DNA of 64,000 nt, from the sequence record AB910393.1, one strand, 5' to 3'. Below the pieces are notes generated by a model. That model was not told the DNA's origin and did not search any database. It was given only the letters and a program-made list of their open reading frames with translations. Shown here one piece after another: positions 23,643 to 64,000 of this stretch. The stretch's first letter is position 1. Every line of letters begins with the position of its first letter. Source of the DNA: Pseudomonas phage KPP25. The translations under genes and the position numbers were made by a program.

Positions 23643-23969
23643 GCCGTGATCCTTTGCGGTTGGGTTGAACGCGGTGAATGTAGCACTGAAACGTTCAACG
23701 TGACAACCTTGTGGGTTGGTGGTTTTATTTTGAAACTGCTCCGATGGCCTTGCGGTTTTGTTTTTGACGACCTCGCGACTTTGTTTTAGATGGCCATGGG
23801 AGCGTGGGGGCAGGTCCACCCCTCCCCTTCAAAACACCCACTCCCCGCTTCGGATTCGTTTTCGTCTCCGACCAAAAGAATTCTTACCCCCTCCCCCTAT
23901 GCCTCTCGTGATTCGCGGAGCGAATCACCCTTACTCCTTGTGTCTTTCATCCACACTGGAGTTCGCATC
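23643..23969. promoter_or_regulatory. divergent intergenic control region between the two arms
   Basis: Contains an inverted repeat GTTGAACG-N20-CGTTCAAC (23664..23699), three gTTTTnTTTTg tracts, CCCCTCCCC tracts, and a perfect 9-bp stem/GGA-loop hairpin (23908..23928). Confidence 0.5.
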
Positions 23970-24200
23970 ATGACCTTGCTCGCTCGCTACAAGACCTTCG
24001 TTTCGGTTCTCAACCGTGTGCTTGCTCTCAAGTTCAGCCTCGGCTTGATCATCTTCTGCATCACCTACGTCGGCATCAGTGCCTTTGGCTTCTATGCCTT
24101 GTGGTTCACCTACGGCTGGTGGTGCGTACCCATCCTCGCTGGCGCTACCGTGGTCATCTACTACACGCAGCGCTTCTTCATCGACGCCATCTTCATCTGA
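23970..24200 (+). CDS. small membrane protein, 76 aa
   Basis: Two hydrophobic helices. First plus-arm gene. Confidence 0.5.
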   Translation: MTLLARYKTFVSVLNRVLALKFSLGLIIFCITYVGISAFGFYALWFTYGWWCVPILAGATVVIYYTQRFFIDAIFI

Positions 24201-26105: not shown

Positions 26106-26269
26106 TTTCCGCACGTGTGTGAGGGGATCGGAGGGGGCCGACCCGCCCCCTTCTCCCCTCCGCCCTTTCTGTATCGATCGCTAACCTAAGTGGTTGTTTC
26201 TTGAAACCAATTAGCTTTTTCTATCGCTGTAACGCTTTCGTTCCAAACAGGATGAGACTGACTCTCAAC

Positions 26270-26735
26270 AACCGTCACGATGTTACGAAATTCCGTCCAC
26301 CGACGAAAATTTCGTAACACGCTCCAGCCCAGGCAGCACTAGGGGCACAGAGCTTTCTGTTACGATGTTACGATCTTTTCTTCTTTATTCCACTACAGAA
26401 AATAAAAAAATAATAATAGATATAGTTAATAAGTATATAGGGCCACATATACACTGTATCTGTAGCGGAATAGCGCAGAACTTCGTAACATTCGTGACAA
26501 AAGTGGCTCAAACCCGCGTGGCACTAAGGCTCCAGCGTGTTACGAAATTTTTTGAGATCGTGACAATCGTGACAAAATTTCCCGGCCAAAACCCCGCAAA
26601 CCCGCGTGGCACTAAGGCTCCAGCCTGTTACGAAATTTTTTGAAGATCGTGACAAAACCTCGGTGTCACCCGGCACAAACCCGCGTGGCACTAAGGCTCC
26701 AGCGTGTTACGAAATTTTTTATGCACTTTCCGTCA
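26270..26735. repeat. element A: AT-rich, repeat-dense non-coding element (hairpin, GTTACGA and TCGTGACA repeats, three 45-bp tandem direct repeats)
   Basis: Hairpin 26281..26319 (12-bp stem, 14-nt loop). AT-rich core 26380..26450 in a GC-rich genome. 45-bp direct repeats at 26509..26553, 26597..26641 and 26676..26720. Homologous to 58130..58440. Confidence 0.85.
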
Positions 26736-26781
26736 CTCCGTGACCAGATCCTTCATTTCAGTCATCCACAGGAGCCTGGAA

Positions 26782-26985
26782 ATGCGCGTCCGCGACGTTC
26801 TGTTCTTCGCCATTTTTGCTTTCTTCGTCTTCATCGCCATGGCCATCTTCGTTTATGCCCCGGCAAAGGCCAGGAAAGCGCATTTCGAGGCGTGTTCAGC
26901 GCAAGGTGGGGTGTTGGTATACACCCGGTACGAAACCCCTCTATGCGTGAAATCTGACGCCTTCCTGTCCATCCCTAACTATTAG
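26782..26985 (+). CDS. small membrane/secreted protein, 67 aa
   Basis: AGGAG Shine-Dalgarno. Hydrophobic N-terminus. Confidence 0.45.
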   Translation: MRVRDVLFFAIFAFFVFIAMAIFVYAPAKARKAHFEACSAQGGVLVYTRYETPLCVKSDAFLSIPNY

Positions 26986-27397: not shown

Positions 27398-28474
27398 ATG
27401 CCGAGCTACGCCGATTACCCCATGCCTACTAAACACAAACGCTTGATCACCAAAGTCGAGGTATCGAAAGCGTTCGAGGCTGATCTGGACAACCACCTCC
27501 CGGTAGTGAGTGAATTGGCCAAGGTCAGAACCTACGCAGACTATGGACTGCGTGGCACGTCCAGCTACGACTCGTATGTGAATGGTTTCGACTTCGACAA
27601 GTCCAACGCTCCCGACGCTATTCCGTATATCGGCTCGAAGGCCCAACTCGCCAAAGCCAGGACACAACACCATGGCTTGTTCGACAAGCACGTGTTCAAC
27701 CTGGCTTTGGCTCGTCACAACCCCAACCCCGGCACCCTCATGAAACCTTCTAGAAGCCGACTCGACCGGTCCATGTGCTACAGCCAGTTCACCGACTGCT
27801 TCTTCGACGACTGCCTTTTTCAAAACATCGATATAGTCGACGCAACATTTACGAACTGCGTTTTCTTCGGTTGCACGTTCAACAACTGCGCTAGCTACCG
27901 CACCAAGTTCGTCAACTGCATTTTCCTCAGTACGTTTTTTCAAGAAGGCAAGTGGGCGAACGCCAAATTCACCGGCTGCAAAATGTACAGGGTACGCTTC
28001 TGCCTATCGACACATTCCGTCTCTACGTCGATGCCACAACTCGAATACGTTCAGTTCTACATGTCGAAACTCGTAGACGTAACCTTCGAAGGCGATATCT
28101 TCTATGACACTATCTTTCCGATGTCCCACTTGATCGGCGTGGCCCTGATAGATGTCGACCTAGCGAACGTGGATATGCGCACAGCACTCCACGTCGACAT
28201 CGAAAGCATGCGCGGATGCAGGCTCAGCCGACCGAATCCGACGCAGTTCATGTCGATGAACATCCACGACTACCCGATCGTGTACACCTCGAACGTCATA
28301 CAGATCGGTTGTCAGGCGTTCAGCATGGACCAGCTACGCCACTGCATCAGCATGGAAACGCAGGAGCTGTACCAGCTGGCTTCCGATGCGCCGAGATTGG
28401 TGAAAGCCCACCTGAAGTGGCTGCTCAAGACCATCGAGCGCTTCAAACCCAAGCCGCTCCCGTACGAGTGCTGA
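27398..28474 (+). CDS. pentapeptide-repeat protein (Qnr/MfpA-like beta-helix, possible DNA mimic), 358 aa
   Basis: More than 25 consecutive 5-residue repeats with a hydrophobic (F/L/I/M) residue at every fifth position (e.g. DCFFD DCLFQ NIDIV DATFT NCVFF GCTFN NCASY ...). Confidence 0.75.
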   Translation: MPSYADYPMPTKHKRLITKVEVSKAFEADLDNHLPVVSELAKVRTYADYGLRGTSSYDSYVNGFDFDKSNAPDAIPYIGSKAQLAKARTQHHGLFDKHVFNLALARHNPNPGTLMKPSRSRLDRSMCYSQFTDCFFDDCLFQNIDIVDATFTNCVFFGCTFNNCASYRTKFVNCIFLSTFFQEGKWANAKFTGCKMYRVRFCLSTHSVSTSMPQLEYVQFYMSKLVDVTFEGDIFYDTIFPMSHLIGVALIDVDLANVDMRTALHVDIESMRGCRLSRPNPTQFMSMNIHDYPIVYTSNVIQIGCQAFSMDQLRHCISMETQELYQLASDAPRLVKAHLKWLLKTIERFKPKPLPYEC

Positions 28475-29566: not shown

Positions 29567-30223
29567 ATGCTCGACAAGAAACGCGACCGAATCCTCGCCA
29601 ACCAGACCCCGCATGCGCGGAAGGTCTACGAATGCGTACCGATAGCTGAACCCTGGCCGGCGCACCAGATCATGGCGCAGTTGAAAGTCGATCGTGGTTC
29701 TGCCTTGAGCGTCGCGGTGGTTCGTGGCTGCTTGAAGGCTCTGCACGAAGCTGGGCTGATCCGCCGGCCGACCAGCGATCTGTACATCCGCGAGAAGGTG
29801 ACTGAATCGGCGGCCGCCACGATCGCCGAGCAGATGGACGAAACCGTCGCCGACTACAAACGCACAAAGCCAGCCCAGCCAGCCCAGCCAGCCCAGCCAG
29901 CCCAGCCAGCCCAGCCAGCCCAGCCAGCCCAGCCAGCCCAGCCAGCCCAGCCAGCCCAGCCAGCCCAGCCAGCCCAGCCAGCCCAGCCAGCCCAGCCAGC
30001 CCAGCCAGCCCAGCCGAAGGAACCCAGCATGTCCACCTCGATCGACACCCTGCTGAAAATCGCACAGCAGCTTTCTGTCCTGGCCGCCGAAGTCGAAGAG
30101 AAGCTGTCGGAGATCGCATCCGAGATCGAGACGGCGGCCAAGCAGGTCGAGTCCACCACCGCGGCCGATCGTGAGCAGCTGGCCAAGCTCAAGCAGCTCC
30201 AGTCTCTACTGAAGGATCTGTGA
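29567..30223 (+). CDS. winged-helix-like DNA-binding protein with a (PAQ)x16 tandem repeat linker and a coiled-coil C-terminus, 218 aa
   Basis: Perfect 9-bp nucleotide tandem repeat at 29870..30015 that encodes PAQ. Confidence 0.6.
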
Positions 30224-38660: not shown

Positions 38661-41066
38661 ATGGACATCGCTTTCCTGTCCGCACCCGTGCCTCTGACGA
38701 AAACGTACAAGCAGCTTCGCGGACGCATCGAAAAATCGAACTACCCGAACACCTCGTCCTTCACCTCCCACACCGAAACACCGAAACGCCTCGAAGATTT
38801 CTACGCCGCCATCGTCGAGCACGCCAAGCAAGGCCACTGCTTGCTCAAGGGGCAGCTCAATCGAAACCTCGTCGAGGAATCCCGCGCTGGCTCGACCGAG
38901 AGCAACCAAGCCACCGAGTGGGTCTGTCTGGATATCGACGGCCTGGAAGTCGAATCCCCACAAGCGTTCATGGACGCCATCGGTCTTGGCAGTGTCAGTT
39001 ACATCGTCCAGTACAGCTCAAGCTATGGGGTACTTGATGACCTGCTGCGCTGCCACATCTTCTGCCTGCTGGACAAGCCGGTCGCTGCACCGCTGCTCAA
39101 GCAGTGGCTGATCGACGTGAACTTCAACACCGAGCTGCTGTGCAGCCAGATGTCCCTCACGCCGAGCGGCAACGGCCTGCACTGGCCCCTGGATATTACC
39201 ACCTGCCAGAACGACAAGCTGCTGTACATCGCGCCGCCGAACCTGATCGGCGTGCCTGATCCCTTGCAGCCCGACGAGCGCTACCAGCTCGTCAAGAACA
39301 AGGGTACGCACTTCAAGCTGCCGAAGCAGATCGGCACCGTCAGTGCGAACCGGTCGCGGATTGACGACAAGGTAAACGAGCTGCGCCTGGAAGCTGGTAT
39401 GCCCAAGCGCAAGGCGTCGAAGTACAACAGCATCGGCCCCGTCGAGTTCGTAGCGAACCCGGATCAATGCACCGTCACCGGGATTAAGGAAGACCGTGGT
39501 TTCGTCTACCTGAACCTGAACGGCGGCGACAGCTGGGGTTATTACCACCCGGTCGACAAGCCGGACTTCATCTACAACTTCAAGGGTGAGCCGACCTACA
39601 AGACCAAGGATCTGGTCCCGGACTATTGGCACGACCAGCAGCGCAAGGTCGAAGAGGCCGAAGAGTCCGGCGAGGTTGTCACGCATCTGGCATTCCGCGA
39701 CTTCAACTCGGCGAAGTATTACAACGGCTGGTATGACCCGGACACACGGGAGCTGGTACTCAAGCAAGCAGCCAGCGAGAAGCAATTGGCTGACTACATG
39801 GCCAGTCAAGGCCGCGCGCTGAGTGATCGAATCCCTATCTGGTCCATGGAGTTCCTGCCGTCCGAGGATTGGACGCTGAACCGTGACTATGATCCGCCGG
39901 TGATCAACACGTTCGTGCAGAGTCCTTACCTCCAGGCCAAGCGCCCAGCTAAAGCACCGAGTGTGCCGACGCTTATCGCGCGTATCATCCACCACGCATT
40001 GGGCGGTGACGAAGAAGTAACGGACCGGTTCTACAACTGGCTCGCCGCAGTGATGCAGAAGCGTGTAGCTATCGGCACCAGCTGGGTGCTCAGCGGCACG
40101 CAAGGCACTGGCAAGGGGCTGATCTGCAACAAGATCCTCCGCCCGATCCTGGGCGATACCTATGTCCAGCAGAAGCGCATGGACGAGTTGGACGAGAAGT
40201 TCAACGACTTCATGGAACAGTGCATCTTCCTCTTCGTCGATGAAGTGCAGCTGTCCGAAATGCGTAACGGCCGGGCACTGATGCAGCGAATCAAGAACCA
40301 GATCACCGAAGAACGGATCAGCATCCGCGGCATGCACCGCGCTGGGCAGATGATGGTGAACCACGTCAACTGGGTCTTCTGCACGAACATGCCTGACCCG
40401 ATCTACCTGACCAGTGACGACCGTCGCTTCAACATCGCACCGTTCCAGCCCAACAAGCTGCTGATCACCTCCGAAGAGATCGAAGCGATCGAAGACGAGC
40501 TGCAACAGTTCTGCGACTACCTGATGATGCGTGAAGTCGATTTCGACCTAGCGCGCGCGGTCATCATGACCGAGCAGCGTGAGCGCCTGATCAACACCAG
40601 CAGCACCAGCATCGAACTGGCTTGCGACGCTGTACGCCGCGGTGACCTCCAGTTCTTCCTCGACGAACTGCCGAGCGATAGCCAGTCCTTCGTGCTGCCT
40701 GACACCATGCTCAAGTTGTCCCAGTACAAGCGTGCGCTTCGTGAAGTCATCGAGCACGCTTCTACGGGCGGCAAAGGCGTAGGGCGGGATGTGCTCCACA
40801 CGCTGCTGCGCTACGTGCTACCGGACTGCCCCACGTCCAGCCACAAGTTCACTTCGCTGATCAAGCACCACGGCCTGTACGTGCAGTCCATGCGTATCGG
40901 TACGCGCACCACGCGCGGCATCGAAGTGGACTGGGTGGTCCCGGAAGGTGCCCTCGACCAGATCGATGGCGTCGCCGATAAACCGGTCAACGACGAGATT
41001 TCTCCGAAGACCAAAGCCGAACTGAAAAAGCACCTGAAAGGTGTAGCCGGAGGCAAATCGAAATGA
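38661..41066 (+). CDS. bifunctional primase-polymerase / SF3 (D5-like) helicase, 801 aa
   Basis: The N-terminal CLDIDG is an archaeo-eukaryotic-primase-like acidic motif. The C-terminus has Walker A GTQGTGKG and Walker B FLFVDE, typical of the P4/D5 helicase family. Confidence 0.8.
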   Translation: MDIAFLSAPVPLTKTYKQLRGRIEKSNYPNTSSFTSHTETPKRLEDFYAAIVEHAKQGHCLLKGQLNRNLVEESRAGSTESNQATEWVCLDIDGLEVESPQAFMDAIGLGSVSYIVQYSSSYGVLDDLLRCHIFCLLDKPVAAPLLKQWLIDVNFNTELLCSQMSLTPSGNGLHWPLDITTCQNDKLLYIAPPNLIGVPDPLQPDERYQLVKNKGTHFKLPKQIGTVSANRSRIDDKVNELRLEAGMPKRKASKYNSIGPVEFVANPDQCTVTGIKEDRGFVYLNLNGGDSWGYYHPVDKPDFIYNFKGEPTYKTKDLVPDYWHDQQRKVEEAEESGEVVTHLAFRDFNSAKYYNGWYDPDTRELVLKQAASEKQLADYMASQGRALSDRIPIWSMEFLPSEDWTLNRDYDPPVINTFVQSPYLQAKRPAKAPSVPTLIARIIHHALGGDEEVTDRFYNWLAAVMQKRVAIGTSWVLSGTQGTGKGLICNKILRPILGDTYVQQKRMDELDEKFNDFMEQCIFLFVDEVQLSEMRNGRALMQRIKNQITEERISIRGMHRAGQMMVNHVNWVFCTNMPDPIYLTSDDRRFNIAPFQPNKLLITSEEIEAIEDELQQFCDYLMMREVDFDLARAVIMTEQRERLINTSSTSIELACDAVRRGDLQFFLDELPSDSQSFVLPDTMLKLSQYKRALREVIEHASTGGKGVGRDVLHTLLRYVLPDCPTSSHKFTSLIKHHGLYVQSMRIGTRTTRGIEVDWVVPEGALDQIDGVADKPVNDEISPKTKAELKKHLKGVAGGKSK

Positions 41067-41887: not shown

Positions 41888-42649
41888 ATGGCCAAGCATA
41901 TTCAACTCACCAACACCATGCGTGAGCACATCGCTTCGATGCTCATGTGCGAGGCAGCGAAACCGAAAGCGGCGGACCTGATCGCTCGCGTAACGGATCT
42001 CAACGACAAGTTCTGGCATACGCACGCGAAACGTTTAGCCGCGATGGGTATCACTTCCAGTACCTGGCCCGACCTGATCGTGAACGGCGTATGCACTTCT
42101 GTGTTAACCGCCATTCCGTGCTACTACGAAACGAAGTTAGGTCAGTACAGTAGTAGCCGCTCGGAAGATACTTCCCTCAAGACGTACGGAGTGTATCCAC
42201 ATATCGCCTTGCGGACTTTCCAAGAACATGGCGTACTCATTCGTAGCCTGCTGAGTTCTGATGCTTTCGCACCGCTTAACAAGTTCATCACTACGGAATA
42301 CAAGTTGAACTACGACTTCAAGTTGAAGTTCGTAGCGTCTGCTACGGTGCCCCGCATCGTCAACATGTCCGTTAAAACCGTGGAGGTTGCGGGTATTCAC
42401 CAATCCATGGGTGAGCTGTGCGCTGACATCAACGAAGTGATCCGTGCAGCACTCGACTTCCACAAACAAGCACTCGAACTTCTGCGTGCGTGCCGCACTT
42501 CCAAGCAGCTGGAAGAGCTATTCCCCGAAGCGATGCGGTTCTTGCCGGCCAAAACCCAGGAGAAGAGGCAGGATATCGCGCCTGTCGAGCTGGCGGCCAA
42601 TGTCCGCAGCATGCTGAACAAAGGCGTCCCGCCGGTCATCACCAAGTAA
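41888..42649 (+). CDS. hypothetical protein, 253 aa
   Basis: Co-directional ORF. Confidence 0.5.
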   Translation: MAKHIQLTNTMREHIASMLMCEAAKPKAADLIARVTDLNDKFWHTHAKRLAAMGITSSTWPDLIVNGVCTSVLTAIPCYYETKLGQYSSSRSEDTSLKTYGVYPHIALRTFQEHGVLIRSLLSSDAFAPLNKFITTEYKLNYDFKLKFVASATVPRIVNMSVKTVEVAGIHQSMGELCADINEVIRAALDFHKQALELLRACRTSKQLEELFPEAMRFLPAKTQEKRQDIAPVELAANVRSMLNKGVPPVITK

Positions 42650-47121: not shown

Positions 47122-47343
47122 ATGAGCGTGACGTTGTACCAGAGCGAACTGATGCGGTGTGAGAATTTGCAGACGGGCAACGTCACGTACTACATGCAGG
47201 TGTGCAACGCGATGCGGAGGATTTCCAAAGCCGAGTACGACGAGCGCTACACCAAGGCTGACGGTCTGACCTGTCTGTACACCAAGAGAAGTAAACGTTA
47301 CTGCCGGCATTACCTTACCCTGCTCTACGAGGTGGCGAAATGA
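47122..47343 (+). CDS. hypothetical protein, 73 aa
   Basis: Co-directional ORF. Confidence 0.4.
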   Translation: MSVTLYQSELMRCENLQTGNVTYYMQVCNAMRRISKAEYDERYTKADGLTCLYTKRSKRYCRHYLTLLYEVAK

Positions 47344-47705
47344 AGCTCGACAAGATTGCGGCATTGCCTTTCCCTACTTTACAAGGTGGCGAAATGAAGT
47401 TCGACAAGATTGAGTACAGCGTATGCAACGATTGCTTGCTCTTCGTGGCGGACGGTGAACCGCCGGAGAACGGTGCCGACATAGAAGCCGCGATGCGACG
47501 AGAGATCGGCGAAGCGAAGAATGCGTACTTCGTGTGCGGCGTCGAGCCAACCGAAGATGACCCCGATGGGATCGGTGAAAACGAATTCAGCTGGCAATGG
47601 TGCGAACTTTGCCTGAGCACGCTCGGTGGTAGTCGCTACGGCGTGACGTTGATGATACCCCTGGAAGAAGGAACCGAGGATGGCAGCGCCGAAGAGCCGG
47701 ACTAA
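47340..47705 (+). CDS. hypothetical protein, ~110-121 aa
   Basis: Two alternative starts created by a 28-bp duplicated Shine-Dalgarno-plus-ATG segment. Confidence 0.4.
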   Translation: MKLDKIAALPFPTLQGGEMKFDKIEYSVCNDCLLFVADGEPPENGADIEAAMRREIGEAKNAYFVCGVEPTEDDPDGIGENEFSWQWCELCLSTLGGSRYGVTLMIPLEEGTEDGSAEEPD

Positions 47706-54321: not shown

Positions 54322-54340
54322 CCGCCCTCCAGAAACAAGA

Positions 54341-54366
54341 AACCCGGCCAGTGGCCGGGTTTTTTC
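54341..54366. terminator. rho-independent terminator, likely bidirectional (AACCCGGCC-AGT-GGCCGGGTT plus T6)
   Basis: T-rich on both strands at the point where the two arms converge. Confidence 0.6.
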
Positions 54367-54421
54367 TTGCATCGCAAGGAAGCGCGACAGCAAGGCTCCA
54401 TACGCAGTGCTCATTTTACCA

Positions 54422-54452
54422 GAAACCCGGCCATGTGTCGGGTTTCTTTTTG
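54422..54452 (+). terminator. second tandem terminator (GAAACCCG ... CGGGTTTC plus T5), followed by the perfect 14-bp palindrome GCTCTGTACAGAGC
   Basis: Sequence-similar to the first terminator. Confidence 0.5.
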
Positions 54453-54481
54453 CTCTGTACAGAGCTATGGGGTGCGGGGTT

Positions 54482-56688: not shown

Positions 56689-57366
56689 TCACACCTCCAG
56701 CGTGATCGCCACGCCAATGTCGATAAATAGAGTAGTAGGGTCGAGCGCGAAGCCTACGATCAGCGAGAACAGCGCGCCAGAGGGAACGGTCTGCGTGAGA
56801 TTGCCATCCTGGCCGAGAAACACGGCACCGGGTGTCCACGCCCACCCGGAGTGCTGCACTTCACCGAGGCGCTGCACATCCACTGTGCCGCCAGGGGACG
56901 CCGCATTCAGCGACAGCCCCAGGGTGTTTATGCGATTGATCAGCGTCGCGCAATCAGCGTACACCACTTGGTTGGCGTCGATCGGTGCAACCATGCGATG
57001 CCCGGACATCGGCACCGACGCCACCTTCTGGATGATCGCGCCGCCGGCCGGGCCGGGTTCACCTTTGTCGCCCTTGCGCCCAGGCTGCCCGGCCAGGACG
57101 ACGAACGCCGCCGAGCGCAAGTCCTGCACCTGCTGCGCCCCCGGCTGGATCAGCACCTCGGTAACGGCCTGCGCAGGCGGCAGGACCATGGCGGTGTACT
57201 CCAGCTGCGACGCTGGCCGCGCCAGGGGCAGGACGATCTCCATGTCAGGGTCACGCACGAGCAACGCCTGCGAGCGCTCCCTAGTGACAAGCGCCTGCGG
57301 TGTCGATACCGCCACGGACAGGCACTGGCCGACCCGGCGGACGACTAGAGCCTGACCTGCGTTCAT
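56689..57366 (-). CDS. collagen-like-repeat tail fibre protein, 225 aa
   Basis: GQPGRKGDKGEPGPAGG, a run of Gly-X-Y triplets. Confidence 0.6.
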   Translation of the reverse strand: MNAGQALVVRRVGQCLSVAVSTPQALVTRERSQALLVRDPDMEIVLPLARPASQLEYTAMVLPPAQAVTEVLIQPGAQQVQDLRSAAFVVLAGQPGRKGDKGEPGPAGGAIIQKVASVPMSGHRMVAPIDANQVVYADCATLINRINTLGLSLNAASPGGTVDVQRLGEVQHSGWAWTPGAVFLGQDGNLTQTVPSGALFSLIVGFALDPTTLFIDIGVAITLEV

Positions 57367-57945
57367 TTCGCTACCTCAGCCGTGACGGTCACTCGGCCAG
57401 ACCCCACCGGGTACACCACCGACACGTCGGTCGGGTCGTACAGTTCGAGGTCGTACAGCGCCTTGTTCCAGTCCAGGGTGGCGGTCACGTCCGCACCGAT
57501 CAGCATGCTGATGGTGCTGGTGGGGATATCGATCACGACTCGCCCGTCAGTGGTGTTCCCGGTAAGCAGCGCGTCGGCATCGCCAGGGGTGCGGCGGATG
57601 GCGAACCGCGCGGCCAGCCCAGTGAGATCCGCGGGGGTGTAGAAGACGATGGTGCCGGCTCCGCCGAACGCCTTGAAGCCGATGCCGTTCACGTCGTTCA
57701 GTTCCAGGCTGTCCGGGGTCAGGACTTTGGCCAGATGGAACTGCCCAGGCTGGGTATTCAGCTCAGGAGGGGCTTTCACGCTCTGCACCTCGAACGGCCA
57801 GCCATCAGACAGGCCGTGCCCAGGGACCGTCAGCACGACCGGGGCGGTGGCCGTAGCGCCCGTGATGGGCTTGTAGAGCTTGATCGGGTCGGCCCAGCGG
57901 AAGGCGAATTCGAACGTTTTCCCCTGGAGAATCTGCAAGTCGATG
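57363..57945 (-). CDS. virion protein, ~194 aa
   Basis: AGGAGG Shine-Dalgarno 7 nt upstream of the ATG at 57945. First gene after element B. Confidence 0.55.
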
Positions 57946-58129
57946 GTGCAAGTCATGGTGCGCCCTCCTGTGAGCTGCGGAAAGTATGCCAGCCGGCCCG
58001 GAGCTGCGCCACGCTGCACGTTCCCGCCGTAGGGGTAGCAGAGTGGCGGTTCCACAACTGGAGCGCACCACGGGCCTATTTGGTGCCCTACAGCCTGTAT
58101 CGATACCGTTGATGGTCCAGAGCACTACT

Positions 58130-58440
58130 ATTAATTGCAACGATGTTACGAAATTTTCGGAACGGGCCAAAATTTCGTAACACGCTGGAGCCTTAGTGCC
58201 ACGGGGCTTACAGCGATTTCTGTTACGATGTTACGATTCTTACTACTTTATTCCACTACAGAAAAAATAAAATAAATATATAAAGAATATAGATACTTAG
58301 GGCCGCCGGGGGTACAGGGTAGTATGTACGTGCTCCAGCTCCGAAAAGTTTTTTCGTGACATTCGTGACATTCGTGACAGCTTAGTGCCACGCGGCCTCC
58401 AGCTGACCCAGGCTGTCACGATGTTACGATCTTGGCCCTG
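58130..58440. repeat. element B: second AT-rich, repeat-dense element, homologous to element A
   Basis: Hairpin 58144..58182 (14-bp stem identical in sequence to A's stem, different 11-nt loop). Tandem GTTACGAT pair. AT-rich core 58245..58310. TTCGTGACA x3 at 58354..58380. The ~30-bp motif occurs inverted relative to element A. Confidence 0.85.
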
Positions 58441-58520
58441 TTCGACCTCCCTTGTTGAGAACGTTTCTCAAAATATCGATTATGGTTAAATGCGCCAGGG
58501 CGATATTTCCGCCCTGGAAC

Positions 58521-61500
58521 CTATCGATCAATCCAATCTTTCCACAGCGCGTTACCCGGAAGAGCGCTCAGCGCGGCCCCCGTCACGTCCCCGTCCATCG
58601 TCTTCTCCCCGGCCTTGAGCATGTAGCTGAAGGTCGGGCCGAGGGTGAACGCCGGGCTTTCGATACCATCGGTGGCGAACTGGCGCACGCCGAGCAGGCC
58701 GGCGCGTTCCACACCCCTCCAGATCAGGTCACCCGCGTCCTGGCTCTTGTACCAGTCGGGTTCATCGCCCGCGCCCTGGAGCATCGCCTTGAGGAAATCG
58801 GCGGCGATCATGAACGGCACGTACGCGGCCAGGGTCAGCATCGGCGCATAGTTCCCGTTCCGCAGTTCGTGCGTGGCGCGGTCGAGGATGGTCCGCTGGA
58901 AGCTGTAGGTGAACTGCTTGAGGTGCCACACGAGCATCCAGTGCGGGTCGCTGGCCCAGGCTGGGCGGTCTGCCGCGTGCGGGCGCAGGACTGCGCCGTC
59001 TACCCAGCGGCCGATGGCTTCGCGCACCAGACGGCTTTTCTCGATGGCGTCCTTCGGGTTCATGCCCTGGGCGATGAAGTCCTGCGCACGGAACAGCAAG
59101 CGGCCGTCCGCGTCGGTCTGCACATCCTTGGCGGTGATGCCAAGCTCGTCGAGGTAGCGTGTGCTGTGCTGGTTGACGCCCGCGGCGTGGCGAATGATGA
59201 ACTTCTCGGCGGCGACGGTGGCCGCCGAGCGCATGGCCGTATTCCAACCTTCCATCAGGTTGTACTTGAACAGCAGGTTGTTGGTCTTGCGCGCCCAGTC
59301 CGACATGTAGTTGGAGCCGTACATGTCACCCAGCAGGTCGAGCACGAACGACTCTTCCACGGTGCCGACATCCTCAGCGAAGCGCTGGATGTCGAGCTTG
59401 TTGCCGTTGCGCCGCAGGCTCTGCGGGATGTTCCGTACGCCGGCTTTGAAGGCGGTCCAGGCATCGCTCACTTCCCCGCCGCGTACGACGATGCCCAGCG
59501 GGTCGATAAGGGAGCTGAAGATCGACAGCGGCAGCACGACGAGGTTCTGCCAAGTGATCAGGCCGGACATGGCGCTGCGCAGGTGCGGGTCGATGTTGCT
59601 TCCGAGCGTGCCTTCGAGCGCACGGATAGCCGGCGCTACATCCCGTTCGATCTGCTCGTCCGTCAGGCCGTACCGCTTGGCTTCTTGCAGCTGATCCTTC
59701 AGGCGTTCACCGTTCCGCCCGAAGTGCTTCGTGTACTCCCCGCGCTTCGCAGCCTGGGTGACGTAGCGGGTCAGCACACGGACGATATCCGGGTCCATGT
59801 ACTGTGCGACGGCTGCACGATCCTTCAGTCGGATCTTCCGTTCGTTGACCGCCTGCATGTACGGGGAGTAGCCGGCCAAGTCTTCACTCAGCGCCAGTTG
59901 CCCCTCGGTGGTGGTCAACGTCTCGGCCACGGAGGAAGCGATGTCGGGCGTCATGTCGATCCAGTTCCCGTTGTCGTCACGTACCTGCCCGACCTGCACC
60001 AACGCATCGACGAAGTTATCGAAGTCGGCGTCGATCGCCTCCCGACTCCACGCCTGCGGGAAGTAGTCCTGAACGTTCGCCACATCGACGTTGGACACCT
60101 TCATGTAGTTGAAGATGCGACGGAGCAACGACTTGGTGTCGTCGTACTTCTGCGCCATGGTCGGATCGGTCGGGCGCACGTTCCTGTGCAGCGCCGCGGA
60201 CAGATCCGCCAGTTGCTGCTCGTCCATGGTCTTGATGATGTTGGCCAGCTGCGTACCGAACAGGTTCGTCACTTCCCGCACGGTCTGGATGTACCCGGCG
60301 CGTTGGCCCTGGGTATCGCTGCGCGCGTAGAACTGGTCAGCGATCTTGCTCAACGCCGGGTTACCGTAGTTCTTCAACCGGCCGTGCGCGGTGCGCAGGA
60401 ACTTCCCGGTGAGCGTACTCACGCGGTCAGCCACTCGACTGCTTACCAGGGCGCGCTCCGGGCCGGACAGGGACTGCATCACCACGCGGTTGACAGCGCT
60501 CGGCCGGCGCAGCTTCCCATCCTTGAATGCCTGGAGGTACAGCTCGGCTTTCTGCTCGTTGTTCAGGATCGACAAGGTGCCGCGAATCCACCCAGCGAAC
60601 CGGGACATCCACGTCTGCGGCTGCGCCTGGATGTCGAGCATGCCACTGGCCCACAACTCGTACATGTAGGCGATGCGTTCCTCCGGGTCGCTGAGCTGTT
60701 CGAGCGCGGCCGGTTCGTTGGCCAGCAGGGAGCGCATCTTGCCGAGCACCACCGGGTTACTCGCTGCGCGGTCCAGCGCCTTGATGAACTGGCTTTGTTG
60801 CTTCTGCCCGCGAAGGACGGAAATCAACGCGTGCATGGATTCATGGAACGCCGTGGACATCGGGCTGGCGGCGTTGACCGCTACCTTGATGAACCGCTGC
60901 ATGGTCGGATTCCCGTTGATGTCCGGGCGGGTAGGGTCCAGTTTCTCGGTGAACATACCGCTGATGCCCGGCAGCTTCTCGATGCTGAACATGACATCGC
61001 TCGGCAGCACGCGGGTGATGTAGTCGTTCAGGTCTTTGGCTTGCTGCTGGCTCATTTGGCTCGCACCCTGCGGCCGAGCACTCTGCTGGGAAGTCTCGCT
61101 GAGGTACTGCTGGTGGTACGCCTCCAGCGCGTCGATGTTGTCGGACAGGTACGTCACCGATCGACCAGCCAGCCCGGCTTCGAAGAACGCGTCGTCGGCG
61201 ATGAACGACAAGCGCCCCAGGCGCAGAAGACGCTCAGTCGCTGCCGGGTCAGCCCATTGTGCCGACAGCTGCTTGTCGATCCCTGCGCCGAGGATGTCCC
61301 GCGCGCGCTGAACACCCTGGCGGGTGTCGAGGCTCCGGCGGGCTTCCCGGTTCGCCGCCGGGTTCATGGACTCCCGGCGGTTGTGCAGGTCTTCGCGCGT
61401 GGCGCGGTCGAAGGCACGGGCCAGATCACCAGCGATCTTTGCCTGCGCCGGCACGGTGATGTCGAGCACGGGCACGCCGATCCGGCGAGCCAGCATGACG

Positions 61501-64000
61501 GCGGGGGTACTGGCACCGGCGGTGATCACCACATCCACGGGGTCGGTTCCGGTCGGCCCCAAGATCCGCGCGTATGCGCTCTTGCTGTACGGGCCGGTAT
61601 CCTGATCCACGTCGAGTCTGGTCCCGCTGATGGTGAACCCCCGGCGCGTGTAGGCGTTCATCAGGTTCGTGGCGTCGCGGCTGCGAAGCACCTCACTACG
61701 GTTCAAGGCGAAAGCGACCTTCAACGGCGTGCCGTTCATGGCTGCGGCCATCGGCGCGGCCCAGGCACCCGGTACGTTCGTCTGCGTGGTGTTCATCCAC
61801 GACCGCTGCTGCACGCTGGCGGCGACGTTGTTCATGTGCGCGCCGAAGTCCAGCGGGGAAGGTCCGGGCCGGCGGCGGCCTATCGGCGTCGGTTCGTTCC
61901 GCGCGGCCGCACCTTCCTGCCCGGTGGCGGCTTCGATGGTCTGCGCCTGCATGCGCTCCGGGTCGAGTTCCTGCATGCCCTGCTGGGCGGCGAAATCTTC
62001 GAGGTTCCGGCGTTGCAGCTGCTCGTCGGTGCCGGTGTTGTCCACCGGAGCAGGCCGGCGGTCGAGCTGGCGCTGCCAGAAGTCGCGCACGGACGGGTCT
62101 TGGGCCTGGGCAGCGCCCTGGGCCAGCAGGCGCAGACTTTCGCGCATGGGGCCGCGGTCGGCAACGGTCCTGGCCAGGGTGTCGATGGGGCTGCCGGGGG
62201 TGCGCAGGGAGCCTAAATCCATGGCCGGAGGCAGTGGTTCGCTGGTCAGGGTGGCGGTATTACCCTCCAGAGCCACGCCACGGGGGCTGGCAGCGCGCAG
62301 GAGACGCGCTGCGGCCTCTGGAATGGTAGCGGTGCCCCCTCGCCGCTGAAGCGCTCCCAGGAGCGTCTGGACGGCGTATTCGTCGATCAGGCGCTCAACG
62401 TCCGCCTGTCGTGCATATTGCACGGTTCGCTCCGGGTTTTCGTACGTTTGTACCAAGTCTTGGAGCGCTTCGGCGGTCGGGCTATCCAGGCCGATGGCAT
62501 CACGAGGCAGGCCGGCGCGCGGCTGGTCTGCTCCCTGGCGCAGGTCCGCCACGGTGACTGCTACCTCGCCGCTCCCGTCCTTGTACCGGGCCACTACGGC
62601 GGTATCCGGTAGCTGGAACTGGTAGCCGGCGTCAGCCAGGGTGCCCAGGCCATCGGACAGGGCGTCACGCAGCGCCTGGGCGTCACGACGACCGAATACC
62701 TGCGCGCCTACCAGACGGCGCAGGTCCACGGCTACGTTCGTGCCCTCCGGCGTCGTGGCAGCGATGTAGCTGCCGGCGGACGGGTTGTTCGGCTCTTGGT
62801 TCAGCCGCTCAACGGTAGAACGACGAAGCTGCCGTACGCTGCGAAGGGCTTGTGCTGCACCCGTAGCGTCGGGTCGGACTGCCCGAACAAGGACCGAACT
62901 TGCCAGGGCGTCAGGCGACAGCCCAAGTTCTGCCGCAACGTCTGCGGGATCGACACCGAGTTCGCGCAAGGCTCGTTCAGCGGGCACGCGCTCGATAGAC
63001 CCGTCCGGGTTCGCTCTTCGAGCTGCTTCTTCGGCACGCTGAAGTCGTTGCGTATCGGCACGGGCGATTGGGGCGGGGATACCGAGGCCGCCAGTTTGAA
63101 TCCGGCGGTTTCCGGTGGTATCGCCGAACCAGTTCTCGGCGGCGGACTCGACGGTTCGAGCTTGGTCGAACTCCCCGCCGTCAAGTTCATCGTCAAGAGC
63201 GCCAGCAGATTGGGGGGCATCGGATACCTCGCTTGTGCTACGGCTGGGGGACTCACCGCGCAGGCTGGCGTCCAGGCCGTCGAGCACCTGCTGCGGATTG
63301 GCGAAGGCGCGTTCGAGGAACGGTTGCAGCTCGCCGGTGCCGGTGGTGAGTTCGACACGCAACGCATTCGACAGCTGACGGAGATCCTGCGGTCGCATGG
63401 TGTCGCGGTACTCAGGGCGCAGGCTTTGGAGCAGGAATTGATCGAAGTCACCACGACGTTGCTGATCTTGCCGGATGGCACGCGCGGCGGCTTCATTCGG
63501 TTCCAGTGCGTTCAGGACCGAGTACGCACGCTCGCCGAACACGTCCAGCGCACCGTCGATGGTGTTCTCGTCAATCTGCCCGTTCCGCACGCGGTCAGCC
63601 AGCACGTCAAGGTACTGCCGAACTGCCGGATGGCTTGCTTCCTGGCCCTCTAGGATGCGATCGACCTGCTCGAACCCGGCTACCGGCGCGCGGCGGCTCG
63701 CACGCACACCTTCGGGCTGCATGCGGTTCAACTCACGAAGCGCGGCGTCACGAGATTGCATCGTGTCGGACAGCTGCGCGACGCGCTCCTGGGCGATGGG
63801 ATCGAGGTCCAGCACGGTATCGGCCAGTTCTTGCCGCGTAGCATCGTCGAGGTCCGTGCGGTTCAGCAGGGACTGGCGTTCCAGTTCGAGCTGCTGGCTG
63901 CGCAGCGCGTCGCGTACCAAGCTCTGCTCAACTTGCTGGGCAACCGGCAAGCTGGGATCGATGGTGTCCGGCGCACGTGCAGCACGTGCATCGAGCCTGG
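58521..64000 (-). CDS. giant virion/ejection protein, C-terminal ~1720 codons with an HExxH (zincin-like) motif; the N-terminus continues at 1..1157
   Basis: The ORF runs off the window end in frame. The first in-window start codon is TTG at 63950, which is not the true start. HESMH is encoded at 60831..60845. Confidence 0.8.
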   Translation of the reverse strand, partial: RLDARAARAPDTIDPSLPVAQQVEQSLVRDALRSQQLELERQSLLNRTDLDDATRQELADTVLDLDPIAQERVAQLSDTMQSRDAALRELNRMQPEGVRASRRAPVAGFEQVDRILEGQEASHPAVRQYLDVLADRVRNGQIDENTIDGALDVFGERAYSVLNALEPNEAAARAIRQDQQRRGDFDQFLLQSLRPEYRDTMRPQDLRQLSNALRVELTTGTGELQPFLERAFANPQQVLDGLDASLRGESPSRSTSEVSDAPQSAGALDDELDGGEFDQARTVESAAENWFGDTTGNRRIQTGGLGIPAPIARADTQRLQRAEEAARRANPDGSIERVPAERALRELGVDPADVAAELGLSPDALASSVLVRAVRPDATGAAQALRSVRQLRRSTVERLNQEPNNPSAGSYIAATTPEGTNVAVDLRRLVGAQVFGRRDAQALRDALSDGLGTLADAGYQFQLPDTAVVARYKDGSGEVAVTVADLRQGADQPRAGLPRDAIGLDSPTAEALQDLVQTYENPERTVQYARQADVERLIDEYAVQTLLGALQRRGGTATIPEAAARLLRAASPRGVALEGNTATLTSEPLPPAMDLGSLRTPGSPIDTLARTVADRGPMRESLRLLAQGAAQAQDPSVRDFWQRQLDRRPAPVDNTGTDEQLQRRNLEDFAAQQGMQELDPERMQAQTIEAATGQEGAAARNEPTPIGRRRPGPSPLDFGAHMNNVAASVQQRSWMNTTQTNVPGAWAAPMAAAMNGTPLKVAFALNRSEVLRSRDATNLMNAYTRRGFTISGTRLDVDQDTGPYSKSAYARILGPTGTDPVDVVITAGASTPAVMLARRIGVPVLDITVPAQAKIAGDLARAFDRATREDLHNRRESMNPAANREARRSLDTRQGVQRARDILGAGIDKQLSAQWADPAATERLLRLGRLSFIADDAFFEAGLAGRSVTYLSDNIDALEAYHQQYLSETSQQSARPQGASQMSQQQAKDLNDYITRVLPSDVMFSIEKLPGISGMFTEKLDPTRPDINGNPTMQRFIKVAVNAASPMSTAFHESMHALISVLRGQKQQSQFIKALDRAASNPVVLGKMRSLLANEPAALEQLSDPEERIAYMYELWASGMLDIQAQPQTWMSRFAGWIRGTLSILNNEQKAELYLQAFKDGKLRRPSAVNRVVMQSLSGPERALVSSRVADRVSTLTGKFLRTAHGRLKNYGNPALSKIADQFYARSDTQGQRAGYIQTVREVTNLFGTQLANIIKTMDEQQLADLSAALHRNVRPTDPTMAQKYDDTKSLLRRIFNYMKVSNVDVANVQDYFPQAWSREAIDADFDNFVDALVQVGQVRDDNGNWIDMTPDIASSVAETLTTTEGQLALSEDLAGYSPYMQAVNERKIRLKDRAAVAQYMDPDIVRVLTRYVTQAAKRGEYTKHFGRNGERLKDQLQEAKRYGLTDEQIERDVAPAIRALEGTLGSNIDPHLRSAMSGLITWQNLVVLPLSIFSSLIDPLGIVVRGGEVSDAWTAFKAGVRNIPQSLRRNGNKLDIQRFAEDVGTVEESFVLDLLGDMYGSNYMSDWARKTNNLLFKYNLMEGWNTAMRSAATVAAEKFIIRHAAGVNQHSTRYLDELGITAKDVQTDADGRLLFRAQDFIAQGMNPKDAIEKSRLVREAIGRWVDGAVLRPHAADRPAWASDPHWMLVWHLKQFTYSFQRTILDRATHELRNGNYAPMLTLAAYVPFMIAADFLKAMLQGAGDEPDWYKSQDAGDLIWRGVERAGLLGVRQFATDGIESPAFTLGPTFSYMLKAGEKTMDGDVTGAALSALPGNALWKDWIDR
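63688..64000. repeat. 313-bp duplicate of window positions 1..313 (genome wrap/terminal overlap) with one mismatch
   Basis: Aligned directly: identical except 63931 a versus 244 g. Confidence 0.9.

Follow-up and report, generated by a model that had tools for sequence, protein, structure and literature searches.

Replication origins that combine iterons with AT-rich DNA are well known. In lambda ori, in iteron plasmids and in the ori and crr sites of phage P4, multiple short initiator-site repeats lie beside an AT-rich unwinding region; P4 needs both of these separate iteron-bearing cis sites, and its initiator, alpha, is a primase/SF3-type helicase. The core origins of herpes simplex virus 1 (HSV-1; oriS and oriL), simian virus 40 (SV40) and papillomavirus have an AT-rich centre between inverted sites that bind a helicase-type origin-binding protein. 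In the deep-sea phage NrS-1, an 8-nt recognition word (TTTGGTTA, or GTG), which the primase reads on a single-stranded template, occurs twice in the genome, once per strand, at the genome centre, and this is the proposed origin (PMC7102993, PMC8718748). Here we analyze two related elements, A and B, in a 64,000-nt stretch of DNA from Pseudomonas phage KPP25 (AB910393.1), which as a whole is referred to as the window. Element A occupies 26.1-26.8 kb and element B 57.96-58.52 kb, and they share a common colinear core. Judged by their sequences, A and B are ancient paralogous copies of one another and would be two-fold-symmetric protein-assembly sites, for which the most probable of the roles considered is, tentatively, that of replication origins, or of an origin and its cis-acting partner. 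An origin-type role had already been hinted at in an earlier note on this DNA and is retained here as the best reading, because arrays of a repeated word converge on the only two AT-rich blocks of the genome.

The likeness to each of the known systems is partial. As in lambda, the iteron plasmids and P4, repeated words adjoin an AT-rich region, and as in P4 a primase/SF3-type helicase, here a putative one, is encoded by the phage. However, in this phage the repeats converge on the AT block from two sides, two equivalent paralogues lie ~32 kb apart, an extra conserved motif (M) is present and the elements do not lie in or beside the gene of the candidate initiator. The AT-rich centre between inverted sites is shared with the HSV, SV40 and papillomavirus origins, and HSV additionally offers several copies per genome, placed between transcription units, with a hairpin potential that stems from inverted sites. 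In contrast to these systems, the present one belongs to a bacterial virus, its elements are larger (~350-450 bp) with many more sites and spacers of ~80-130 bp, and its SF3 protein has no recognised origin-binding domain. The NrS-1 primase is the nearest solved relative (PDB 6k9c, E=3e-25) of the 801-aa primase-polymerase/helicase-type protein encoded here, yet where NrS-1 has two words, this phage has ~21 copies in two distant double-stranded arrays.

A repeated word converges on two AT-rich cores

The evidence that carries our reading begins with the distribution of the word TGTYACGA, which is found 22 times in the window against an expectation of 4.2. Of these copies, 12 lie in A and nine in B, two elements that amount to only 1.9% of the genome (binomial p=1.4e-35), and a single copy lies elsewhere. 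Extended to 12 bp the word has the consensus TGTYACGAWNTT and is present in 9-14 copies per element. Copies of this one word make up the arms of the hairpins and the tandem repeats, and they also account for the TTCGTGACA triplet, in which TGTCACGAA is reverse-complemented, and for the 3' end of a 30-nt motif. A G+C content of 33% or less over 80 nt is reached in only two stretches of the genome, 26337-26488 in A and 58200-58317 in B, and no other DNA of the genome should melt as easily.

The words are arranged symmetrically about these AT-rich blocks, with plus-strand words to the left of the core and minus-strand words to the right, converging on the AT block in all 10 aligned elements. In its left half the shared plan runs from an inverted word pair through a reverse copy of M and two or three plus-strand words to the AT-rich core, and in its right half from the core through two or three minus-strand words and a forward copy of M to a second inverted word pair. 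The core measures ~80-130 bp and is bounded by (C)TACAGAAA ... TTTCTGT(A/G)G, and the invariant blocks of the 10-element core alignment are TTACG (twice), ACAGAA, CTGT and CGTAA (twice). Each element is a large imperfect palindrome, and clustered repeat words with an adjoining AT-rich block are features of the origin type.

Organization of element B and its match to element A

Element B lies between the giant virion-protein gene and the minus-strand operon that includes the tail-fibre gene, the first gene of which starts at 57956 and not at 57945 as the earlier note had it. The region opens 4 nt past the giant-gene stop with a minus-strand hairpin, CCAGGGCG-N7-CGCCCTGG (58495-58517; RNA fold -19 kcal/mol, z -3.1). 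This hairpin has no U-run behind it and was not called by the terminator scan, which found no terminator-like site (G+C-rich stem plus U-run) within 57700-58800; it looks like a terminator that would shield B from read-through. Reading leftward, the right-hand iteron pair CTGTCACGATGTTACGAT follows on the plus strand (58413-58430), and then a rearranged or degenerate right-hand M (58380-58412), which when read against the intact right-hand M of the relatives L027, L034 and L036 consists of an inverted first half, CTTAGTGCCACGCGG, and then CCTCCAGC...GGC ahead of the iterons. Three tandem minus-strand iterons, TTCGTGACA x3 (58353-58379), face the AT-rich core (58238-58352), which has a G+C content of 0.37 versus 0.60 for the genome and a conserved CCACTACAGAAAA box at 58253-58265. 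On the other side of the core, two tandem plus-strand iterons, CTGTTACGATGTTACGAT (58220-58237), face it in turn, and beyond them lie an intact minus-strand M, AAGCCCCGTGGCACTAAGGCTCCAGCG (58183-58209), which reads toward the tail-fibre operon and is a candidate promoter or second protein site, and an inverted iteron pair. This pair (58144-58182), the "hairpin" of the element, has the form TGTTACGAAATTTT-N11-AAAATTTCGTAACA with CGGAACGGGCC between the arms, giving a 14-bp stem and an 11-nt loop, and its right arm is the 3' end of the M plus iteron unit.

Element A is likewise preceded by a hairpin, G+C-rich and on the plus strand (26117-26163; RNA fold -34.9 kcal/mol, z -3.2), past the upstream gene (stop 26105); terminator-like in form, it would shield A from read-through transcription. 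The inverted iteron pair of A (26281-26319) is colinear with that of B, with a stem identical over 12 bp and a 15-nt loop unrelated to that of B, and next to it is a degenerate minus-strand M (26306-26345, or 26320-26345 counted from the end of the pair) that is colinear with the M of B. The core of A (26357-26499) comprises two plus-strand iterons, for which CTGTTACGATGTTACGAT is again the sequence (26357-26374), an AT block with CCACTACAGAAAA ... TCTGTAG and two minus-strand iterons (26482-26499). Both elements have the same TTTATTCCACTACAGAAAA, then AT-rich DNA and then (T/A)TAGGGCC, and the counterpart in A of the TTCGTGACA triplet is TTCGTAACATTCGTGACA. To the right, A continues into three tandem plus-strand units (26505-26745, with starts at 26505, 26593 and 26672 and thus spaced 88 and 79 nt), each made of M, a plus iteron, AATTTTTT and one or more minus iterons; the ATG of the first early-operon gene is at 26782.

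The features listed for B in the earlier note (the hairpin, CTGTTACGATGTTACGAT, TTTATTCCACTACAGAAAA...TAGGGCC, TTCGTGACA x3 and the motif) all exist within a few bases of where it placed them, and B is a true second copy of the architecture of A, with a colinear core that aligns pairwise over 139 nt, without gaps, at 77% identity. The approximately antipodal placement described there is likewise borne out, the 31,863 bp between A and B being 0.500 of the 63,687-bp genome.

Conservation of the elements in relatives

The earlier note had tied its proposal to the presence of the elements in relatives, and they are indeed non-random and present in close and distant ones. Elements A and B are 98-99% identical to those of the Pseudomonas phages phiR18, YMC17/07/R4900a and CRPAP1904, which belong like KPP25 to the genus Kochitakasuvirus, and the A-B spacing is 0.486-0.501 of the genome in four Kochitakasuvirus genomes. 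None of the cultured phages outside this genus has the elements, whereas metagenomic relatives do: the same layout is seen at the same two gene positions in uncultured relatives at ~40-60% protein identity. For example, an exact scan for TGTTACGATGTTACGA led to a 62,440-bp contig, Ga0102829_1000007, whose giant protein is 43% identical and which has both elements at these two positions, separated by 30,982 bp (0.496 of the genome). Additional B-type elements (L027, L034 and L036) were reached via homologues of the C-terminus of the giant protein, and A-type elements (L037, L039 and L040) via homologues of the small membrane protein encoded downstream of A. Among relatives with a giant protein 43-66% identical the position is kept, one copy following the giant gene and one preceding the early operon, while those with a giant protein at 27-35% identity lack a B-type element. 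Among other cultured phages, only Aeromonas phage phiA008 encodes a near-full-length homologue of the primase; it has an AT-rich element with TCTAGAG boxes at the A position and no B-type element.

A-type elements from different lineages resemble each other at 0.66-0.69, which exceeds the likeness of A to B inside a distant genome (0.59), so both copies are older than the split between these lineages. Within the lineage of the window, A and B are mutually the closest match (0.67). The word drifts in step within a lineage, as with GATTACGAAAT in L034 and L036 and GGTGGCC in L050, as sites do when they evolve together with the protein that binds them. The tandem triplication of A is missing in L009, L037 and L040.

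Motif M

The motif M is ~25 nt long and adjoins the outer words, with a consensus of AAACCCGCGT(G/C)CTAGAGCGG and the variant AAACCCGCGTGGCACTAAGGCTCCAGCG in the window. A search with CGTGGCACTAAGGCTCCAGCG at up to 3 mismatches gives exactly four matches in the genome, where none is expected by chance, on the plus strand in A at 26517, 26605 and 26684 and on the minus strand in B at 58183-58203. In three lineages the distance from the CCCGCG box of M to a word downstream is constant at 24-25 nt, and most relatives have one copy of M on each side of the core. The earlier note placed the motif on the plus strand for A and on the minus strand for B, which is correct for the intact copies and incomplete with respect to the degenerate minus-strand copy at 26306-26345 and the rearranged remnant at 58380-58412. 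Its additional claim that the motif always points to the downstream operon is true of this genome and of L027, L034, L036 and L037, and fails in L009 and L040, where M is reversed relative to the genes, and in L050, where it faces the core from both sides.

Comparison of the sequences indicates that M is better conserved than the word. The 64.6-kb viral contig L050 (IMGVR_UViG_3300009347_000009) has no clear protein similarity over 11.8 kb, yet M is kept, in four copies (3985-4720), while a different repeated word, GGTGGCC(C/G), present in more than 12 copies, takes the place of TGTTACGA. Thus M outlasts the word in evolution. A GGTGGCC scan of the L050 genome for a second element was swamped by chance matches.

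Elements A and B as candidate replication origins

Beyond the concentration of the word in A and B and their unique AT-rich blocks, no other iteron or AT-rich candidate is present in the genome, and the phage has a replication module of its own. This module includes a putative primase-polymerase/SF3 helicase of 801 aa (38661-41066, plus strand), which matches Pfam DUF5906, the PHROG "DNA primase" families and PDB 6k9c, and further replication proteins, namely exonucleases, a helicase and a polymerase of family A. Transcription coming from upstream would meet a hairpin before it reached either element. In L010 the element directly adjoins a homologue of the 801-aa primase-helicase gene, and in L012, L019 and L022, which represent three unrelated lineages of viruses, arrays of the 8-mer lie next to primase or helicase genes.

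If the elements are origins, a phage-encoded sequence-specific protein would coat the words, the candidates being the 801-aa primase-polymerase/SF3 helicase or an early protein without known relatives. The AT-rich block would then melt and, by analogy with the SV40, papillomavirus and HSV origins, two helicase rings could load head to head to give bidirectional synthesis. The gene-proximal M plus word units would restart transcription of the downstream operon, possibly controlled by the same word-coating protein. A fuller version of this scheme, which we think rather unlikely as a whole, is that a large, almost wholly uncultured clade of ~60-70-kb phages, to which KPP25, phiR18 and CRPAP1904 belong, has two equivalent mirror-symmetric origins roughly half a genome apart, with head-to-head loading of the primase-polymerase/SF3 helicase, replication starting simultaneously from a pair of antipodal points or the two loci being paired by their shared protein, and the same protein gating the adjacent operons.

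Several observations weigh against an origin role. Arrays of TGTTACGA also lie beside tail genes (L006) and terminase genes (L020 and L022), and the link to replication genes is therefore only suggestive; the notion that such arrays always mark replication genes is weakened accordingly. In the 801-aa protein an SF3 helicase domain is seen and a DNA-binding domain is not recognised, a Pfam search of 20 early proteins found no DNA-binding domain, and in a BLASTP comparison the C-terminus of the 801-aa protein showed no similarity to those of the array-adjoining primase-helicases of L012 and L019 (two of the three lineages). The primase-helicase gene is 12-17 kb from A and B; a location in or beside the initiator gene is common among iteron-type origins and not obligatory. 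Neither GC skew nor skew at third codon positions (GC3) switches at A or B (nor, for GC3, at the midpoints), with cumulative extremes at ~23.5 kb and ~44-45 kb, and the GC3 pattern looks driven by codon bias. Skew is weak evidence for origins in phages. A literature search returned no experimental result for any member of the clade, and to our knowledge two equivalent origins would be unusual in a 64-kb phage. Finally, the triplicated M plus word units before the early operon and the decayed gene-distal copies of M point to a partly transcriptional role, which is indeed probable for some portion of the element.

Some features of these arrays and of the skew are recorded here in their own right. 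In L006 (IMGVR_UViG_3300005918_000687, 2330-2470), an unrelated viral contig, at least 12 head-to-tail 8-mers (ATCGTAAT / ATCGTAAC / ATTGTAAC ...) lie between the tail-terminator and tail-tube genes. The cumulative GC-skew minimum of the KPP25 genome, at ~43-45 kb, falls within the plus-strand block, close to the genes for the helicase and the DNA polymerase, rather than where the direction of transcription changes, and GC3 skew is near zero for the genes at 45-54 kb versus about -0.19 for those at 27-44 kb.

A possible role in transcriptional control

The main rival of the origin reading is a purely transcriptional role, which we consider possible and the less probable of the two. In such a role M and its adjacent word would form a promoter that restarts transcription past the upstream hairpin, with a single promoter for the tail-fibre operon and three in tandem, in the manner of T7 A1-A3, for the early operon; the word arrays would be operators through which a phage regulator times or shuts these promoters, and the AT core an upstream or curved-DNA element. 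Both elements lie between co-directional genes, each right behind a hairpin, and neither is a divergent promoter region. Since each separates a hairpin from the gene that opens an operon, it must contain a promoter. Intact copies of M in this genome (four, exact or near-exact) are confined to those that face genes, and the gene-distal ones are degenerate, and the fixed distance of M from the word in three lineages fits a promoter as well. Additionally, L039 has a wordless copy of M ~90 nt before the first gene, and weak sigma-70-like sequences, TTGAAC-16-TAAAAT and TTACGA-17-TAAAAT, occur in the gene-proximal word pair of L009 and L037.

These points are opposed by the variable orientation of M relative to the genes in L009, L040 and L050, and by L027, L034 and L036, in which an intact M runs antisense into the upstream gene. 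The best-kept bases of M would fall in the promoter spacer, the large structural operon that starts at ~23.7 kb has neither M nor a word array, no phage RNA polymerase was detected, and the symmetric far-side arrays and the ACAGAAA...TTTCTGT box would be left without a role. Neither a sigma-70 nor a sigma-54 promoter accounts for M in the window: a sigma-70 promoter (TTGACA-N16-18-TATAAT, including -11A and -7T) was rejected, as scans gave background-level matches only and no site in or next to any copy of M, and for sigma-54 (GG-N10-GC; TGGCAC-N5-TTGC) the GG-N10-GC spacing is absent, as TGGCAC is followed by TAAGG-CTCC with no GC at -12. TGGCAC itself is missing from the M of L034, L036 and L050. 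The three tandem conserved units of A, directly upstream of the early operon, resemble T7 A1-A3 and N4 P1-P3; however, a sigma-70 consensus, the hairpin geometry of N4 and a detectable virion RNA polymerase are all lacking here, and relatives without the triplication exist. The origin and promoter readings are compatible and not mutually exclusive.

Other possible DNA transactions and the hairpin

It is improbable, in our estimation, that A and B serve another DNA transaction that uses arrays, such as packaging at a pac site, formation of genome ends, site-specific or homologous recombination between the two copies, or a pairing of the two loci, centromere-like or Mu-SGS-like, that folds the genome. 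Word arrays do lie beside the terminase genes in L020 and L022, the L038 contig terminates inside its A-type element, and A and B share protein sites while lying about half a genome apart. However, the terminase genes of this phage, at 19.8-22.4 kb, are far from both elements, a pac site is normally single, and two long contigs of relatives begin at the equivalent of ~23.8 kb rather than at A or B. The genome showed no gene for a recombinase or for partition, it would be split by recombination between direct copies, and phiA008 has the element at the A position only. With regard to partition, the two short-repeat arrays that flank a central region recall parC of plasmid R1, a type II plasmid centromere, in which two iteron arrays flank a promoter, and one protein would likewise be both structural binder and regulator. 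In parC the repeats are all direct, whereas here they are convergent, ParR/ParM-like genes are missing and the phage is virulent. The two contigs just mentioned, L025 (1-370) and L037 (1-276), of 62,440 and 59,867 bp, begin in a divergent intergenic region that corresponds to window ~23,700-23,970, and one of them opens with poly-G. Physical genome ends may lie there, which would place A ~2.5 kb from the left end.

The earlier note had argued from a conserved stem and a divergent loop that the secondary structure of the hairpin at 58144-58182 is itself functional. This argument is not supported: the sequences indicate that the kept feature is two inverted words, not a structure, and that a hairpin arises because two inverted word copies face each other and not through selection of the fold. 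The single-stranded DNA folds are significant in the window, at -14.1 kcal/mol (z -5.2) for B and -15.2 kcal/mol (z -7.2) for A, and the B-type hairpin of Ga0102829 has a very stable 26-bp stem (-32 kcal/mol, z -13). However, the arms are inverted copies of an 8-12-bp word that recurs ~20 more times outside any hairpin. In other relatives the inverted pair is kept with loops of 15-34 nt and stems of 8-10 bp, the fold is weak or non-significant in L034 (z=+0.15) and L039 (-5.2 kcal/mol), the words are unpaired in L040, and in L036 the word types are out of mirror order. The arms co-vary at one position between lineages (AAATT/AATTT versus AAGTT/AACTT), which is equally expected of two inverted sites for one protein, and T58157C in three close relatives removes the top stem pair without compensation, so that pairing is not kept by sequence-independent compensatory change. 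Promoters of N4 have a 5-7-bp stem and a 3-nt loop and require a virion T7-like RNA polymerase, whereas the stems here are 12-14 bp, the loops 11-15 nt and such a polymerase was not detected; Rfam models gave zero matches across the whole window and no T-run follows the hairpin, for which a terminator reading was also rejected. A function of this hairpin as single-stranded DNA or RNA, whether as a hairpin promoter of the N4 type, as a single-strand origin or as a stem-loop in RNA, is thus very improbable.

Genome layout and additional features

Window bases 1-313 recur at 63688-64000 with a single mismatch (G244 versus A63931), so that the window represents, in circularly permuted form, a genome of 63,687 bp from the KPP25/phiR18 group of Pseudomonas phages, genus Kochitakasuvirus, of which KPP25 is the type phage. 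The structural genes are on the minus strand and run from ~23.7 kb down past position 1, wrapping into the giant gene (58521-63687, continuing to ~1158; stop 58521). On the circle the giant open reading frame encodes 2,107 aa; the mismatch in the tail copy, A63931, creates an in-frame stop, and the listed reading frame therefore has 1,809 aa. The giant protein has no family or PDB match. An HExxH motif (FHESMHAL) lies near residue 1350, and the C-terminal 500 aa, which contain hydrophobic segments, are its best-kept part (62% identity to a relative). An identity as a virion RNA polymerase was rejected, there being no RNA polymerase family, Pfam or PDB match and no DxDGD motif, only HExxH.

Downstream of element B, the minus-strand operon with the tail-fibre gene runs from 57956 down to ~54.5 kb; its first gene (57363-57956) encodes 197 aa, with its ATG at 57956-57954 and the ribosome-binding site AGGAGGG. 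Small plus-strand genes at 23.97-26.1 kb end at the strong hairpin that precedes element A, and a long plus-strand block of early, replication and lysis genes (26.78-54.3 kb) lies downstream of A. Where this block converges with the minus-strand genes, two alike hairpins with T-runs (ACAAGAAACCCGGCC...GGGTTTTTTCTTGC), 83 nt apart at 54335-54453, are probably bidirectional terminators.

Several features within the plus-strand block were observed in passing. A 358-aa early pentapeptide-repeat protein (27398-28474; Pfam Pentapeptide_4, E=1e-9) has the fold of the DNA mimics Qnr and MfpA and by analogy may be an inhibitor of a host DNA-binding enzyme. The early open reading frame at 29567-30223 contains ~17 copies of the 9-nt tandem repeat AGCCAGCCC (29868-30020), which encode a long low-complexity linker; the N-terminus of its product resembles, by eye, a small helical DNA-binding fold, and Pfam gave no match. 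A 253-aa protein (41888-42649) matches Nmad5 (nucleotide-modification-associated domain 5, E=7e-8), a hint that phages of this group may modify their DNA bases. At 47305-47412 a 54-nt unit is duplicated in tandem with 89% identity; each copy has GGTGGCGAAATGAAG, which reads as a ribosome-binding site plus start codon, and the whole looks like the doubled start of a small gene.

Implications for Kochitakasuvirus phages

A two-copy, roughly antipodal, mirror-symmetric version of an iteron and AT-rich arrangement with a third conserved motif is not described in the papers searched, and a full-text literature search for the 8-mer returned 16S primer matches only. The published Kochitakasuvirus genome papers report most genes as hypothetical, with these regions unmentioned. 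What emerges from the present analysis is a conserved cis element that is present twice per genome and comprises conserved sites of three kinds. Phages of this genus, including KPP25, phiR18 and CRPAP1904, are under development for therapy; A and B should not be deleted in safe genome engineering, and they are targets for origin mapping and for finding a new DNA-binding protein. The 801-aa primase-helicase has more than 2,200 metagenomic homologues and essentially no cultured relatives outside the genus, and these phages could consequently be an experimental handle on the clade. Should both copies prove to be active origins, KPP25 would offer a rare example of a tailed phage with dual symmetric origins, and if the two origins also gate the adjacent operons, it would constitute a dual-origin, replication-coupled transcription switch of a kind undescribed for tailed phages.

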